A DNA stretch of 63,353 bases, counting the filler. It is 6 parts of 6 records of this genome, joined end to end, with 100 filler letters (N's around TTAATTAATTAA, not from the genome) between each part and the next. Parts side by side here need not be neighbours in the genome. Positions count along the whole stretch, not along the records: positions 12,859 to 32,916 come from SRR20825010_3247; 5 more parts are not named here. One strand, given 5' to 3'. Below, one piece after another: positions 13,854-19,985 of the stretch. The notes under the pieces are model-generated. The model saw only the letters and a program-made list of their open reading frames with translations, searched no databases and was not told the origin of the DNA. Made by a program: the position numbers and the translations under genes. Every line of letters begins with the position of its first letter. Positions within the stretch are counted from its first letter, which is position 1.

Positions 13854-16800
13854 ATGCCGCTTTGGCAAATCGACATTCATCCTGCTCCCGGTCAAATCGA
13901 TCGACTCGGCGAACAAACGGCTCGTGAAATTCATGAACTCGGATTGGGCGACGACCTGCTGATCGCCGCTGCACGGGGATACTTGATCCAAGCCGACATC
14001 GACGAAGCTTCCGCCAACGAAATTGCGTCGACGTTGCTGGCCGATTCCATCACGGAATCGGTCGTCGTCGGGCATCCTGGCAAAGACGCTTCGCTGGTCG
14101 AAGCCGACCTGTCCGAGGCCCCCGAATCGTTGATGGAATTGCTGGCCGAGCGTGGCATCGAATCCGAACCGCACCTGGTGCACGTGATGCCCAAACCCGG
14201 TGTGATGGATCCGGTCGCCGCCAGTACCCAAGGCGCGCTCGCCGATCGGGGTGTTGAAGGCAGCACAGTCAAAACGTTCCGCAAATTCTGGATCGCGGGC
14301 ACCGACGAAGCCCAACTGGAAACGATCTGCCGCCGTGCCCTGTCAAACGATTCCATCGAAGCCTTTGTGATCGGGCCGTTGACGATGGATCGATTGGATG
14401 TCGGCTCGGCGGGCGAATTTGAATTGGTGCACGTGCCGATTCGCGAACTCGATGACGCCGGATTGGAAAAACTTTCCAAGGAAGGCCAGCTGTATCTGAC
14501 GCTGGTCGAGATGCAAACGATCCGCGATCACTTCGTCGAACTGGGACGTGACCCAACCGACATCGAATTGGAATCGGTCGCCCAAACTTGGTCGGAACAC
14601 TGCAGCCACAAAACACTGGCTGGCCGGATTCACTACAAGGGTCCTGGTGCGGATGGCACACCCGGCGGCGACGAACGCCAGTACAACAACATGCTCAAAG
14701 AAACGATCTTTGAAGCAACCCAAACCATTCGTCGCTCCCTGGGCGATGACGATTGGTGCGTCAGCGTGTTCAAAGACAACGCGGGCATCGTGACCTTCGA
14801 CGAACAAGACCACGTGTGCTTCAAAGTCGAAACGCACAATCACCCGTCGGCGCTCGAACCCTACGGCGGTGCCAACACGGGAATCGGTGGCGTGATCCGG
14901 GACCCGATGGGCACCGGCATGGGAGCCAAACCCGTCTGCAATACCGACGTGTTCTGCTTCGCCCCACCGGACGTTTCACCTGAAGAACTGCCACCGGGCG
15001 TGCTGCACCCCCGCCGAGTCATCCAAGGCGTCGTGTCCGGCGTGCGTGACTACGGCAACCGAATGGGAATCCCCACAGTCAACGGTGCGGTCTACTTTGA
15101 CGAACGTTATCTCGGCAACCCGCTGGTTTACTGCGGCAACGTTGGCATCATTCCTGTCGGCATGGAAGACAAGGAAGTCAAACCCAACGACTTGATCGTC
15201 GCGGTTGGCGGACGCACCGGACGAGACGGGATCCATGGGGCAACGTTCAGCAGTGCGGAACTGACCAGCGAATCTGAATCGCTGTCCGGCGGTGCCGTCC
15301 AAATCGGCAACGCGATCACCGAAAAGATGGTGCTCGACGTGCTGATGCAAGCTCGCGATCGCGGGCTGTACAACGCGGTCACGGACTGCGGTGCAGGCGG
15401 CTTCAGCAGCGCGGTTGGCGAAATGGGCGAAGAGCTCGGTGCCGAAGTTTGGCTGGACAAAGCCCCATTGAAATACGATGGCCTGACTTACACCGAGATC
15501 TGGATCTCCGAAGCTCAAGAACGCATGGTCTTGGCCGTTCCCCAAGAACGTTGGGACGAACTGCGTGAACTGTGCGAAAGCGAAGGCGTCGAGGCCGCCG
15601 CGATCGGCCGCTTCGTTCCCACTGGTCGACTGCAGTTGAACTTCCATGGCCAAACGGTCGGCGACGTCGCCATGTCGTTCTTGCACGACGGACGTCCGCC
15701 CGTGATTCGCGACGCGATCTACGAACCACCCAAAGCGAAACCATTGTCAATCGGCGACCGCGATGCTGCGGCCAACTCCGAAACCCTGCTCAAGATCCTG
15801 GGCAGCTACAACGTCGCCAGCAAGCACTGGGTGATCCGCCAATACGATCACGAAGTCCAAGCGGGCAGCGTCGTCAAACCCTTGGTCGGCCCACAATGCG
15901 ATGGCCCCGGCGACGCCGCTGTCGTGCGTCCCAAACTGAACAGCCGTCGTGGGTTGGTGATCAGTTGCGGCATGAACCCGCACTACGGCGACTTCGACAC
16001 GTATCACATGGCCGCTTCGGCGATCGACGAAGCCATGCGGAACGCAGTCGCGGTCGGTGCTGATCCTTCCAAGATCGCCATCCTCGACAACTTCTGCTGG
16101 GGATACACCGATCGAGCCGAAACGCTGGGGTCGCTCGTCCGGGCCGCGATCGCTTGCCAAGACCTCGCGGTCACTTTGGGCACGCCGTTCGTCAGCGGCA
16201 AAGACAGCCTGAACAACGAGTTCAGCTACTTCGACGACAAGAACGAAAAGGAAACCATCGCGATTCCGCCCAGCCTGCTGATCAGTGCGATGGGCCAAAT
16301 CGACGATGTCAGCAAATCAATCACGATGGACGCGAAGGAAGCCGGCAACGTGATCTTCCTGGTTGGCGAAACGCATCGCGAACTCGGCGGCTCGCACTAC
16401 GGCTTGGTCGAAAACGAACCCGGCGGTGCGGTCCCTGAGGTCGACGCAAAGTTGGCGAAGAAAACGTTTGCGACCGTCCACCAAGCGATCCAGTCACGAC
16501 TGGTCCGCTCGTGCCACGACCTGTGCGAAGGCGGCCTGGCGGTCGCTGCGGTCGAAATGGCTTTGGCCGGCGGATTGGGCATGAACCTCGACCTCGCAAC
16601 CGTTTCTCGCGAGCAACCCTCCAACGATGGCGTGCTCACCGCAGCCGCATTGTCAGCCACGGAAGTTCTATTCAGCGAATCAAACACTCGATTCCTGATG
16701 GAATGTGCCCCCGAATCAGCCGAAGCTCTGTCCAAGATTTTCGCGGACTCCGGGATCAGCCTGACTCGTTTGGGCGAGGTCACCGATTCGGGCCAATTCA

Positions 16801-16883
16801 CAGTCCGCGACGGTGACGCCGTGGTGCTGGAAACCGACATCGCGACCGCAAAATCGGCCTGGCAAGCCCCTCTGGATTGGTGA
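13854..16883 (+). CDS. purL: Phosphoribosylformylglycinamidine synthase PurL with N-terminal PurS-like extension
   Basis: [32 protein letters not shown] and SGKDS. Confidence 0.96.
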
Positions 16884-16933
16884 TTTAGAACCAATTTGGA
16901 AGCAAACTTCCTCAGAAGCTTGCTAAATTCGCA

Positions 16934-16973
16934 TTGAACCGCGAGCTGGTTTATTCTGTAATTGCTACAGAAT
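16934..16973 (+). promoter_or_regulatory. Candidate sigma70 promoter overlapped by a 21-bp palindromic operator (Fur/Zur-like)
   Basis: TTGAAC-N17-TGTAAT at 16934-16962; ATTCTGTA-ATTGC-TACAGAAT at 16953-16973. Confidence 0.45.
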
Positions 16974-17032
16974 GCATCAGCTTGGCGAAAAATCGCCGAC
17001 AAAAACGAACAACTTCAACCATTTGGCACCGC

Positions 17033-17506
17033 GTGGAACTCTGGGTCCGTCGAATCGCTTTGATCGCATATGTGGTCGGTGGCTGGCTTTTGCCGGCTGC
17101 CCACCATCATGTGGCGACGTGCGATTCCACCCATTCCCATGCTGGCATTCACGACGATTGCTCTCATACGCATTCGCCTGAAAATGTCGCCGGTTGTTGC
17201 TCGCACTCGAGCTCCGCGGACGCGGTCCAGCATGCACCGCTACCGCCAGGTGGCTCGGAAGAATTGCTGGTCTGGGAAACGAGCCTGCCGTCCGCAGAGA
17301 TCGTTTCGAATGACCAGCATTCTCATCAATGCGGTGACCTCTGTGCGTTGTGCAACGCTCGCACGATGGCTGATACCCCGATCGCGGCCTCCGTCCAACG
17401 CGAAATGGCTCGCTGCACGGCGAGTCACCGGATCGAATCGACGACCCTTGAAGACTCGGCAGATTGCTGGCGTCCGTACACACGCGGCCCACCTTCTTTG
17501 ACCTGA
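17033..17506 (+). CDS. DUF2946/CruR-like His/Cys-rich leader protein with C-terminal RGPP arrest motif (start uncertain: TTG 16982 or GTG 17033)
   Basis: Hydrophobic N-terminus RRIALIAYVVGGWLLPAA followed by HHH; 13 His and 9 Cys in 157 aa; CALC; ends RPYTRGPPSLT. Confidence 0.75.
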   Translation: MELWVRRIALIAYVVGGWLLPAAHHHVATCDSTHSHAGIHDDCSHTHSPENVAGCCSHSSSADAVQHAPLPPGGSEELLVWETSLPSAEIVSNDQHSHQCGDLCALCNARTMADTPIAASVQREMARCTASHRIESTTLEDSADCWRPYTRGPPSLT

Positions 17507-17600
17507 AAACTGCCGTTTTGGCTTGCGGTGAAAACCAGTTTCACTGTAACGCAAACTCACTGTCTTCCATCGAGAGCCAATGCGCTCTCATTTTCAGGTC
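17500..17600 (+). promoter_or_regulatory. Predicted mRNA three-way junction sequestering the DUF1559 ribosome-binding region
   Basis: GACCTGAAAA (17500-17509) is complementary to TTTTCAGGTC (17591-17600); internal hairpins at 17523-17549 and 17572-17589. Confidence 0.6.
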
Positions 17601-17607
17601 TCATTCC

Positions 17608-18621
17608 ATGTCACACATTTCCTGCCCAGCGGCGCGTGCCCACGCAAATCCAAGCAACCGATCGACTTCTGGAGCTTCCCTTCGCAAGGCTTTCACACTC
17701 GTTGAACTGTTGGTCGTGATCGCCATCATTGGCGTTCTTGTTGGCCTGCTGCTGCCAGCCGTCCAGGCCGCCCGCGAGGCCGCCCGCCGGATGTCGTGCC
17801 AAAACAACCTGCATCAAATGGGCATCGCCCTGCACAACTACCACGGCATCTTCAATCAGTTGCCCAGCGGTTGGTTGGCCGACGACATCGATCACCACGA
17901 ACCCGGCTGGGGCTGGGCCGCCGCGATCACGCCGCAAATTGAAAGCGGAAACATCTACGACACCATTCAATTCGGAATGGCCATTGAAGAAGACGAGAAC
18001 CAACAAGCACGTGAATCATCGATCCCAAGCTACATGTGCCCCAGCGATCCGCTAGAGACACTGTTCTTCATCGCCGAAGCTCACGGGGATGGTCATGGGC
18101 ACGAACATGACCACTCAGCAGCGTTGGATGACGACGACGACGATGATCACGACGACGAACACGAGAGCGGGCACAACGTCGACGACGGCGACGAGTTCTT
18201 GTTCAAAATCGCCAAAAGCAACTACGCCGGCGTGTTCGGAACGTTTGACATCCACGACGACATGTATCACGGCGACGGTTTGTTCTACGGCAACAGCCGC
18301 CACCGTTTCCGAGACGTGCTGGATGGACTGAGCCAGACCGTGATGGTCGGTGAACGCAACAGTCGTTTGGGTGGCTCGATTTGGCAAGGGCTGATCCCCG
18401 AAGCCAATGCCGCCGCGTCTCGCATCGTTGGTGCAGCCGATCACACTCCGAACAGTGATGCCGGCCACTTTGAAGACTTCAGCAGCTATCACGCCGCCGG
18501 TGCACAATTCGTCCTGAGTGATGGATCGGTGCGAATGCTGTCGCAGTTCATTGACTTGAAGGTCTACCACGCCTTGGTGACCCGTGCCAATTACGAAGTC
18601 ATCGAAGCCGACTCCTTCTGA
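17608..18621 (+). CDS. DUF1559 prepilin-type N-terminal cleavage / H-X9-DG protein with His/Asp-rich insert
   Basis: RKA|FTLVELLVVIAIIGVLVGLLLPAVQAAREAARRMSCQNNL; CPSD; C-terminal H-AAGAQFVLS-DG. Confidence 0.95.
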   Translation: MSHISCPAARAHANPSNRSTSGASLRKAFTLVELLVVIAIIGVLVGLLLPAVQAAREAARRMSCQNNLHQMGIALHNYHGIFNQLPSGWLADDIDHHEPGWGWAAAITPQIESGNIYDTIQFGMAIEEDENQQARESSIPSYMCPSDPLETLFFIAEAHGDGHGHEHDHSAALDDDDDDDHDDEHESGHNVDDGDEFLFKIAKSNYAGVFGTFDIHDDMYHGDGLFYGNSRHRFRDVLDGLSQTVMVGERNSRLGGSIWQGLIPEANAAASRIVGAADHTPNSDAGHFEDFSSYHAAGAQFVLSDGSVRMLSQFIDLKVYHALVTRANYEVIEADSF

Positions 18622-19797
18622 TCAGGCCGCCGACTTCCGGGCTGCTTGGGTTGGCGCTAGCCATCCTCGCATGCCATCCAGATCCGCCGACCAGGCTTCA
18701 CTGGTTCGGCGGTCACAGAATGTATGGAACAACCCGTCGATCGTGTCGCTGAGCGTTCGCACCGCTTCGATGCGATCTTCGGGACCGAAGTCGTCGTCAT
18801 CTTCATCCAAATGGATGCGAGCGCCACTGATCCCGAACGTCTCCGCTTGCAGAGTCAGGTCAAATTGCTGGCCTTCGCGAATCAACGTCATACCTGTCTT
18901 GCGAGGCAACTTGCCACTTTGGATCGCACGCATGGCCTCGGGCAATTTGACAGGGCACTCCGCGGAAATGGACTCTTTGCCTGACTCTCCGATGGGACAT
19001 TCCAGCGAAAGCGTCTTGGCCAGCATCAGCGTGACTTCGGTTCCGTCGAACGTCTCAATCGTGTCGGTTTCCGTTTCCAGCATCCACCACAGCCACAGCA
19101 AAAACTCGTTGCCAAGGAAGTCTGGTGACTGGGAATGCTCGTTCGCCCATGCGACACCGCTGAACCCTTCACCGGTGACGAAACTGGCGGGCATCACATC
19201 ATCCATTTCGGCATAGCGATCGTTTTCGCGAGCCCAATCCTGCGCGACGACACCCGCACTGATGTGCCCGCATTCGATTCCGAACACACGTTCGAGCAGA
19301 TCGACGCAGTGACCACTGCCGGTGCCTGCGGTTCCGCCGTAATAAAGCAGATCGCGACTGCAGTCCCACAACAAAGCGTGCTGTTGAAACTTGCGGTACT
19401 TGCCCGTTGCGGCTTCATTTTCACAGCGTTGCTCGACCGCTTCCTTGGCTTCTTTGCGTTGCGACTTCGTCGGTTTCCCGCCCGGATTTTCACGGCTCAA
19501 TGCCGCGAGCTCCATCGACAACCAAGCCTTCTTGATCACCGAAGGCACTTGGTTGGTGTCGACGCGAACACCAAAGTGCACAGCATCATCGATGATGTTT
19601 TTCGCCAGATCAAAATCTTGATCGAAAAGGTGATCGCCGCCCAGAAAACCCAAATGCACGTTTTCTTCGTTGGCGGTTTCCGTTCGCCCGGCCACGTTCT
19701 CTGCCATCCGCTCGATGTGTTCTTGCCCAAATGGGCCGTCTTCAAATTGATTGACGCGAAATCGTTCAAAAGAAAGGCTACCGGAGAGAAACGGCAT
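18622..19797 (-). CDS. RdgC-like (putative exonuclease/recombination-associated) protein
   Basis: MPFLSGSLSFERFRV, RVD..QVP, FLGNEFLLWLWW and EA...GKLP resemble RdgC-like proteins of planctomycetes and deltaproteobacteria. Confidence 0.6.
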   Translation of the reverse strand: MPFLSGSLSFERFRVNQFEDGPFGQEHIERMAENVAGRTETANEENVHLGFLGGDHLFDQDFDLAKNIIDDAVHFGVRVDTNQVPSVIKKAWLSMELAALSRENPGGKPTKSQRKEAKEAVEQRCENEAATGKYRKFQQHALLWDCSRDLLYYGGTAGTGSGHCVDLLERVFGIECGHISAGVVAQDWARENDRYAEMDDVMPASFVTGEGFSGVAWANEHSQSPDFLGNEFLLWLWWMLETETDTIETFDGTEVTLMLAKTLSLECPIGESGKESISAECPVKLPEAMRAIQSGKLPRKTGMTLIREGQQFDLTLQAETFGISGARIHLDEDDDDFGPEDRIEAVRTLSDTIDGLFHTFCDRRTSEAWSADLDGMRGWLAPTQAARKSAA

Positions 19798-19985
19798 GAA
19801 TGAGAATCCCAATCAATCGATGAGCGGAAGAAACCAGCCACTCCGTGTCGGCTGTGTCGTTGGCTTATCGTCCAACCTCAGCCTAGAAATTGCCGCGCTA
19901 TCGCCAGACCATCGCAACACCGCAACCTGCCCAGCCGGAATAACCGGCCGGCGACGACCACTCACGAGACCGGCTTTTCCGCCGA

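Follow-up and report, generated by a model that had tools for sequence, protein, structure and literature searches.

The stretch of DNA analysed here (63,353 nucleotides (nt), called the window throughout) carries on its plus strand a small open reading frame (ORF), the putative leader P0001, followed 101 nt further on by a gene for a DUF1559 prepilin-type protein, P0002. The leader ORF (17033–17506, +) specifies a His- and Cys-rich peptide of 157 residues, hereafter the window peptide, which ends in RGPP-SLT-stop. The plus strand is open from 16934 to 17506, and the preliminary description of this locus had taken 16934 as the 5′ limit; that position is merely the TTG of the longest ORF. GTG 17033 is the likely start, because the homolog of Rhodopirellula sp. 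JC737 has the N-terminus MELWVRR and because a start codon lies 14–15 codons ahead of an invariant GG motif in 22 of 22 related loci.

Two Arg residues precede a hydrophobic segment (residues 8–23) which is followed by HHH (24–26; together 17054–17110, +) and could act as an export signal or signal anchor. The top 15-residue Kyte-Doolittle window of the peptide falls on residues 8–22 (IALIAYVVGGWLLPA, score 1.97). Across 49 aligned family members there is no clearly conserved A-x-A site, and the segment may be an uncleaved anchor. A CxxC motif (C104-A-L-C107; 17342–17353, +) lies inside the conserved block C-x-G-L-C-A-L-C. The RGPP codons, CGC GGC CCA CCT (residues 151–154; 17483–17494, +), form the putative ribosome-arrest site, and a three-codon tail (SLT) with a TGA stop at 17504–17506 completes the frame (17495–17506, +). 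Upon recounting, the hydrophobic N-terminus, the 13 His and 9 Cys, the gap of 43 residues between CALC (104–107) and RGPP (151–154), and the stop three codons past RGPP were all found as first described.

P0002 (337 residues, 17608–18621, +) begins with ATG. Its domain matches are PF07596 [DUF1559, E 9.9e-71, 239 bits], PF07963 [26.3 bits], TIGR02532 and TIGR04294 [25.4 bits], so that in Pfam and NCBIfam terms it combines a DUF1559 domain, an N_methyl prepilin motif and an H-X9-DG motif. An insert at about residues 156–196 (18073–18195, +) consists largely of H, D and E, which account for 27 of 40 residues; a prepilin-type DUF1559 gene at this distance with a His/Asp-rich insert is what the preliminary description had reported. 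Solved structures found by a PDB sequence search with P0002 match it at the N-terminal pilin helix alone, and an AlphaFold2 model built from a 16-sequence alignment was unusable (mean predicted local distance difference test score 33.6). The 101-nt intergenic region (17507–17607, +) is C-rich, with 29 C and 19 G.

A word-indexed protein search yielded 2 relatives of the leader, scanning genome contigs for its pattern yielded 13 loci (Rhodopirellula, Novipirellula, Aporhodopirellula and Rubripirellula), and a profile search of 1.84 billion representatives yielded 51 matches; homologs are found at 21 genome loci and 8 metagenome loci. Based upon these sequences the leader represents a conserved family of the Pirellulaceae. 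An alignment of 49 full-length cluster representatives, which are 23–48% identical to the window peptide, has L10, Y13, G16, G17, P21, H24, H26, C104, R151 and G152 invariant, and W18, C56, C107, P153 and P154 kept in at least 90% of the sequences. RGPP is kept in 47 of the 49 representatives. The exceptions read RGPA and RGSP, the latter belonging to the frameshifted locus L031 from a metagenome-assembled genome (MAG). In the three sets of DNA loci RGPP is present in 13/13, 7/8 and 8/8. The distance from CxxC to the Arg of RGPP is 43 or 44 residues in 46/49, the tail past RGPP is three residues long in 40/49, and the final residue is V or A in 41/49. Loss of RGPP and CxxC from orthologs had been named beforehand as telling against a leader of this type, and what is found is their retention. 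Since RGPP, spacer and tail length are kept in homologs so distantly related, the pattern as read from the alignment goes far beyond chance.

The RGPP codons themselves vary synonymously. In 21 loci the Arg is written by four different codons, as are the Gly and each Pro, and all three stop codons occur, which indicates that selection acts on the peptide. Compared with its counterpart in R. europaea 6C (locus L001) the leader has 33 synonymous and 22 non-synonymous differences, and the ratio of non-synonymous to synonymous differences per site (pN/pS) of 0.22 marks it, on this comparison, as a translated ORF under purifying selection. A chance ORF is ruled out by the family conservation together with this ratio. 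The spacer between the two genes is identical to that of R. europaea at 94 of 101 positions, while the leader diverges by 0.287 at its synonymous sites (Fisher p 3.7e-5). A spacer more conserved than synonymous sites must be functional RNA or DNA, whatever its fold. At two MAG loci (L031:2902–3408 and L034:3435–3911) genes are shortened, the leader in L031 and the DUF1559 gene in both, which could be due to assembly errors or decay.

While the distance between the N-terminal motif and CxxC varies (62–107 residues in the 49 sequences), the linker from CxxC to RGPP is constant in length and variable in sequence. This is the signature of a ruler and not of a fold, and it bears upon an alternative that sees in the peptide a stable metal-binding protein, membrane-anchored or periplasmic, such as a chaperone, a metal store or a partner of the DUF1559 protein, like the CzcI/CopL-type relatives of DUF2946 which act as proteins. 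RGPPxxV/A would in that case play a structural role or be recognized, for instance by a tail-specific protease or a PDZ domain, rather than cause a stall. The N-terminal segment, with seven invariant residues and one near-invariant residue including H24 and H26, exceeds the needs of targeting and fits this alternative, as do the abundance of His and Cys and the prevalence of V or A as the last residue; such an ending resembles C-terminal recognition tags. Some CutF-like proteins lacking the proline motif (CzcI) may also act differently, according to the text of Ozturk et al. 2023 (PMC9973294). Apart from the ruler, the constraint on the intergenic RNA is not what a stable protein would lead one to expect, nor is the use of RGPP, a motif which, as described in the text of PMC12992588, ordinary proteins strongly avoid and which arrests ribosomes in several settings. 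The DUF2946-type leaders CruR and CutF, in the accounts given in PMC9426467 and PMC9973294, are undetectable or quickly degraded as proteins. We therefore regard a stable protein as an improbable explanation of the family.

The leader is consistently followed by the same kind of gene. A same-strand DUF1559 gene lies 3′ of it in 12/12 loci comprising the window and 11 genome loci (phmmer), L009, which ends 351 nt past the leader, and L012, which breaks off close to where the next gene begins, being left out of this count. The same is true of 8/8 further genome loci and of 7/8 metagenome loci, the eighth having just 288 nt left. The pairing put forward in the preliminary description thus holds at 27 of 27 scorable loci, which amount to about a dozen independent lineages, L037–L039 being near-identical and several of the genome loci close relatives. 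A single strong match to the family profile (122–129 bits) is present in each of five genomes, whereas two of these genomes contain 76 and 99 matches to PF07596, so that the leader marks one particular paralog.

These DUF1559 proteins fall into two subtypes. Subtype A, of about 325–338 residues, carries the His/Asp/Glu-rich insert, is 62–71% identical to the window protein, and occurs in the window, L001, L032, L033, L034 (as a fragment) and the TARA loci L037–39. Subtype B, of about 400–422 residues, is without the insert, is 33–40% identical to A, and accounts for all other loci with a full-length gene; in L031 the DUF1559 product is a 146-residue fragment. A His-rich DUF1559 target, as first proposed, is therefore correct for subtype A and does not hold as a general rule: the insert is present in 5 of 20 leader loci (window, L001, L032, L033 and the L034 fragment) and absent from the other 15, the L031 fragment included.

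The preliminary description had suggested a hidden Markov model search against DUF2946 (PF11162), the family of CruR and CutF, and here the window peptide gave no match at E≤1; nor did Pfam and NCBIfam as a whole assign it to any family. PF11162 matches 4 of the 49 family members, weakly, with a best E of 0.0054. The same genomes, though, carry other small RGPP-ended ORFs which do match PF11162, with 38, 24.5, 22 and 16 bits, the first two passing its gathering score of 23.7 bits. When the leader family was compared by hhalign with six such planctomycete paralogs, two of them above that cut-off, the probability was 96.4% (E 1.1e-9, 142 columns), and against a single paralog sequence it was 91.8%. 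Reciprocally, the leader family profile recovers the DUF2946-like paralogs at E 4e-7 to 1e-4, and in an ESM-Atlas feature search DUF2946 clusters make up 14 of the 30 nearest. Because the profile-profile match, the reciprocal match and the ESM-Atlas clusters concur, we assign the leader by sequence relationship to a divergent Pirellulaceae branch of the DUF2946/CutF-like superfamily, below the reach of the Pfam model and with a kinship visible by profile-profile comparison only.

On another contig of Novipirellula rosea a second RGPP leader of the DUF2946-like paralog type (L027:3012–3485), which scores 22 bits to PF11162, also stands before a DUF1559 gene, here of a third subtype (L027:3796–4848), the product of which has 350 residues and is about 31–33% identical to the others. 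Elsewhere, two further RGPP-ended DUF2946-like small ORFs stand back to back (L014:639–1217(−)/1413–1982(+); L015 and L026:7246–7686(−)/7855–8439(+); L028:3238–3660). In L026 and L028 the ORFs that come after the plus-strand member, about 400, 790 and 320 residues long, by eye have the look of a MoxR-type operon.

Contigs from RNA (metatranscriptomic) libraries, derived from near relatives, cover 16983–17145 with one difference and bridge 17462–17576 and 17503–17666, that is, from the leader through the intergenic region into the DUF1559 gene. They cover small shares of the stretch and give no level, ends or strand; they are weakly compatible with a single leader-DUF1559 transcript and could also reflect DNA carry-over.

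In the minimum free energy (MFE) and centroid folds of the window a helix of 10 base pairs (bp) joins the stop region of the leader to the sequence shortly ahead of the DUF1559 start codon. Its 5′ arm, GACCUGAAAA (17500–17509, +), includes the leader stop codon and is identical in L001, and its 3′ arm, UUUUCAGGUC (17591–17600, +), occupies positions −17 to −8 relative to the DUF1559 ATG. The helix is significant in an ungapped-helix test against dinucleotide shuffles of the spacer (p=0.013) and unchanged in L001. A modelled ribosome footprint on RGPP lowers the energy needed to open the start region of the window from 11.4 to 8.3 kcal/mol. Across loci the tail plus stop form the 5′ helix arm in the MFE folds of 12/12 loci shown, with sequences that differ between clades, and the helix test gives p<0.05 in 7/19 loci. 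The modelled stalled ribosome eases opening of the start in 16/19 loci, with a median of 1.05 kcal/mol (Wilcoxon p 1.3e-4), whereas a control footprint 45 nt upstream has a median of −0.14 kcal/mol. Taken across loci, the modelled support for a stop-to-start helix is mixed.

Intergenic lengths range from 46 to 461 nt. A scan of 16700–18900 for intrinsic terminators gave three terminator-like sites against 2.0 expected, none of them in the intergenic region, and Rfam (16500–19000, E≤1) gave a lone chance microRNA match inside the DUF1559 gene and no known riboswitch or leader. C exceeds G along about 17490–17700. Around the leader stop the sequence G-U-U-UGA-UUG is present in L004, L006, L013, L032, L033 and L034, and a similar one in L030, L035 and L036; its recurrence in lineages which differ elsewhere points to a nucleotide-level constraint at the stop.

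One might argue from these data that the leader and the DUF1559 gene are mere neighbors and that DUF1559 expression is unaffected by the RGPP ORF, given an intergenic region in which neither an intrinsic terminator nor an Rfam element proves coupling and helix statistics which are weak in many loci. This is difficult to reconcile with same-strand pairing in every scorable locus, which extends over both DUF1559 subtypes and to leaders as little as about 25–30% identical, with intergenic conservation above the synonymous rate, or with a single-copy leader set against the 76–99 DUF1559 matches per genome. We consider it very improbable indeed.

The explanation which in our view best accounts for the locus, with a probability of about 0.7, is that the 157-residue ORF is a regulatory upstream ORF (uORF), a metal-sensing leader of the CruR/CutF kind placed before a DUF1559 gene; the assignment is based upon sequence and upon analogy with those two systems. 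Of the metal-sensing arrest leader originally envisaged, the CruR/CutF architecture, the conservation of RGPP and CxxC and the pairing have stood, while the match to PF11162 and the His-rich DUF1559 protein as a general target have not. The N-terminal hydrophobic segment would bring the nascent chain to the membrane, and the ribosome would pause once the RGPP codons occupy the peptidyl-transferase center. At that moment the CxxC and the nearby invariant His and conserved Cys, 43–44 residues upstream, would be situated approximately at the mouth of the exit tunnel, where metal bound to the CxxC/His/Cys region might alter the duration of the pause. With the Pro codons in its P and A sites the paused ribosome would hide the tail codons and the stop, which in the window make up the 5′ arm of the helix. 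We propose that the start region is thereby exposed and the DUF1559 pseudopilin synthesized, and that after prompt termination the helix would re-form. Alternatively, and nearly as likely as unmasking of the start site, the output could be CruR-like, the pause blocking Rho on the C-rich intergenic RNA.

A number of observations weigh against this explanation or against parts of it. PF11162 misses the window peptide and reaches few of its relatives. Conservation of the N-terminal segment goes well past what a plain signal peptide would require, hinting that the protein, mature or membrane-bound, has a function of its own. With respect to the helix, when the stall region was scanned without bias by RNAduplex against everything downstream, the result was no better than shuffles in most loci, 17/100 shuffles being as good in the window, and the whole-region fold has z=−1.47. 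No clear helix was seen in the six loci with a spacer of at least 220 nt (L002, L004, L006, L010, L030 and L035). In the short-spacer, subtype A loci L032–L034 the hairpin stops 23–27 nt ahead of the start and leaves it uncovered. The gain in opening energy is below 1 kcal/mol in 9/19 loci, and the combined p-values are inflated because the loci are related. The stretch in which C exceeds G fits the Rho route equally well. Finally, the zinc-related neighbor described below, a ZIP transporter gene, is absent from the window, which has purL upstream, and from all subtype A loci.

That transporter provides a hint as to the metal. In L004, L006, L010, L013 and L036 a ZIP gene on the same strand ends 133–203 nt upstream of the leader (L004:4785–5867, L013:4877–5869, L036:1758–2798; PF02535, E about 1e-32 to 1e-35), and in the same five loci a zinc-type alcohol dehydrogenase is encoded past the DUF1559 gene. 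BLAST clustering underlies this grouping of five, Pfam confirming the transporter in three loci (L004, L013 and L036) and the dehydrogenase in L004 only (L004:7750–8958). All five have the insert-free subtype B. DUF2946 genes also head zinc/cadmium systems in Caulobacter and are present there in the Zur-linked czr locus (as given in the text of PMC4176598). Because of the ZIP loci, the subtype A insert with its His, Asp and Glu, and the two invariant His and three conserved Cys of the leader, zinc is our first guess for the metal; that the pair is turned on when metal is scarce is likewise a guess from context.

An arrest leader need not sense metal. The CxxC might report on oxidative folding through its disulfide, or the nascent chain on targeting or translocation, and so tune the synthesis of a pseudopilin which depends upon Sec and prepilin peptidase. 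RAPP/RGPP uORFs do occur upstream of DsbA, thioredoxin and sec genes (Fujiwara et al. 2025, PMC12992588, from its text), three or four conserved Cys could form disulfides, and the DUF1559 product is itself a membrane-inserted prepilin. Redox sensing, on the other hand, leaves the invariant His and the His-rich stretches unexplained, the closest characterized relatives sense copper in the accounts of PMC9426467 and PMC9973294, the ZIP and zinc-dehydrogenase synteny recurs in five loci, and no dsb, sec or yidC gene adjoins the pair in any locus. A leader sensing something other than metal accordingly strikes us as distinctly unlikely.

Returning to a metal-sensing leader, one may carry the argument further and picture a nascent-chain switch for zinc or another divalent metal, turning on one dedicated pseudopilin at scarcity, with at least some DUF1559 proteins serving as metal-capturing tips or subunits of a pilus-like fiber. 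The basis for this is the His/Asp/Glu loop of subtype A and the ZIP importer gene which flanks the loop-free subtype B in five loci. We offer it as a speculation that is rather doubtful as it stands. If true, it would represent a mode of metal acquisition undescribed in bacteria and the first function for the DUF1559 family.

Upstream of the leader we noted a possible promoter of the extracytoplasmic function (ECF) sigma factor type, GAAC-N16-CTGTAA (16936–16961, +), about 70–95 nt ahead of the leader start. The related pattern AAC-N16-18-CGTA, 68–156 nt ahead of the leader start, is present in 16 of 22 loci (L002–L009, L011, L013, L029, L030, L032–L034 and L036) against 0.62 expected from shuffles; the pattern had first been spotted by eye, and the test used these same data. 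The window and L001 deviate from it in having TGTA in place of CGTA. AAC/CGT is a consensus typical of ECF promoters. A promoter scan of 16700–18900 gave no sigma-70-type site. An operator-like palindrome, TTCTGTA-N5-TACAGAA, is located at 16955–16973, about 60–80 nt ahead of the leader start. It recurs in L001; by eye no counterpart was seen in other clades. Further upstream is purL (13854–16883, +), in a fused form of 1009 residues with an N-terminal PurS-like domain (PF02700, residues 109–172) and FGAR-AT and AIRS domains. On the other side a convergent ORF of 396 residues (18622–19812, −) has its stop abutting that of the DUF1559 gene without a spacer, and its product matches no Pfam family at E≤1.

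The preliminary description had also regarded the pairing of an RGPP leader with DUF1559 as undescribed, and we agree to the extent that no searched paper text links the two, although the figures or supplements of the surveys might. The class of RAPP/RGPP uORFs has already been cataloged, as the text of PMC12992588 makes clear; the term DUF1559 occurs 0 times in that text, and its figures or supplements may list it. In the text of PMC9973294 "Planctomyc" occurs 0 times and "pilin" just as a signal-peptide category, the supplements again being a place where such pairs may be listed. None of the searched papers on DUF1559 deals with its regulation. What we describe thus appears to be a well conserved leader of the CruR/CutF type with a new kind of target gene, and with a mechanism which we infer from sequence. 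New here are the quantified ruler, the reciprocal DUF2946 profile link and the contrast between a single-copy leader and 76–99 DUF1559 matches, together with the two DUF1559 subtypes, the stop-to-start helix, the conserved spacer and the ZIP lead.

We know of no function for DUF1559, and yet it is among the largest planctomycete gene families, as the numbers for the two genomes illustrate. A dedicated single-copy sensor-leader would tell when the cell wants one particular paralog, which is a direct and cheap route to function and would give a first experimental handle on one member of this huge family. Sensing by a nascent chain of the CruR/CutF type would at the same time be extended to a phylum in which it is yet to be studied, to a subfamily missed by Pfam, and to a new class of regulated gene. 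The two subtypes, the spacers of 46–461 nt and the differing helices at the same place furnish natural variation for the study of leader-gene coupling.

Among known systems, the arrest peptides which monitor Sec or YidC (SecM, MifM, VemP and ApdA/ApdP) resemble the leader as proposed here in having a C-terminal arrest motif of the RAPP/RAGP type, an exported leader and a start site exposed in dependence on the stall. They differ in that the present family has a conserved CxxC/His sensor region and a downstream gene which is not part of the localization machinery; in all scorable loci that gene is DUF1559, and not SecA, SecDF or YidC.

CruR (Bp2923) of Bordetella pertussis, a DUF2946 protein, has RAPP three residues from its end and a 45-residue spacer (Roy et al. 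2022, PMC9426467), the spacing in CruR-type proteins being 45 ± 1–2 residues. As described in the text of that report, the CXXC-RAPP spacing is conserved in more than 2000 proteins, and stalling of the ribosome denies Rho access to an unstructured C-rich RNA. On this description both CruR and the window peptide are small and equipped with CXXC and with RxPP three residues from the end; CruR is predicted to be exported, as the window peptide may be. Both have a fixed spacer, which at 43–44 residues is 1–2 shorter here, and both head an operon across a long, C-rich intergenic region of 162 nt in CruR and 101 nt in the window. The differences are RGPP instead of RAPP, a window peptide unmatched by Pfam DUF2946, the strongly conserved hydrophobic N-terminus with HHH, a DUF1559 prepilin as the target rather than a TonB-dependent transporter, and a ligand which is perhaps not copper. 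Furthermore, the window has its stop-to-start helix, whereas CruR requires unstructured RNA and Rho.

CutF of Rhodobacter capsulatus, likewise of the DUF2946 family, stalls and so melts a stem-loop which hides the ribosome-binding site (from the texts of PMC9973294 and 10.1101/2025.02.05.636593), and this is the kind of output which the 10-bp helix of the window suggests. Unlike the window peptide, CutF as described there has CxxxC and a PPP-type motif. Its stalling is induced by copper and turns on a detoxifying oxidase, whereas here the target is a pseudopilin and we would guess at the opposite polarity.

A close general precedent is the catalog of Fujiwara et al. (EMBO J 2025, PMC12992588). 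According to its text RGPP is a robust arrest core, refractory to EF-P and similar to RAPP, which is depleted from proteomes and enriched near the C-termini of small exported proteins, the Planctomycetota being among the phyla analysed. Small RAPP/RGPP uORFs are reported there to precede a diversity of genes, including those of metal homeostasis; among the genes named are those for TonB receptors, YcnI, PCuAC, PepSY, DsbA/thioredoxin and sec. The leader described here resembles those entries in belonging to a family of small, putatively exported proteins with RGPP near the C-terminus, encoded upstream of a further kind of gene.

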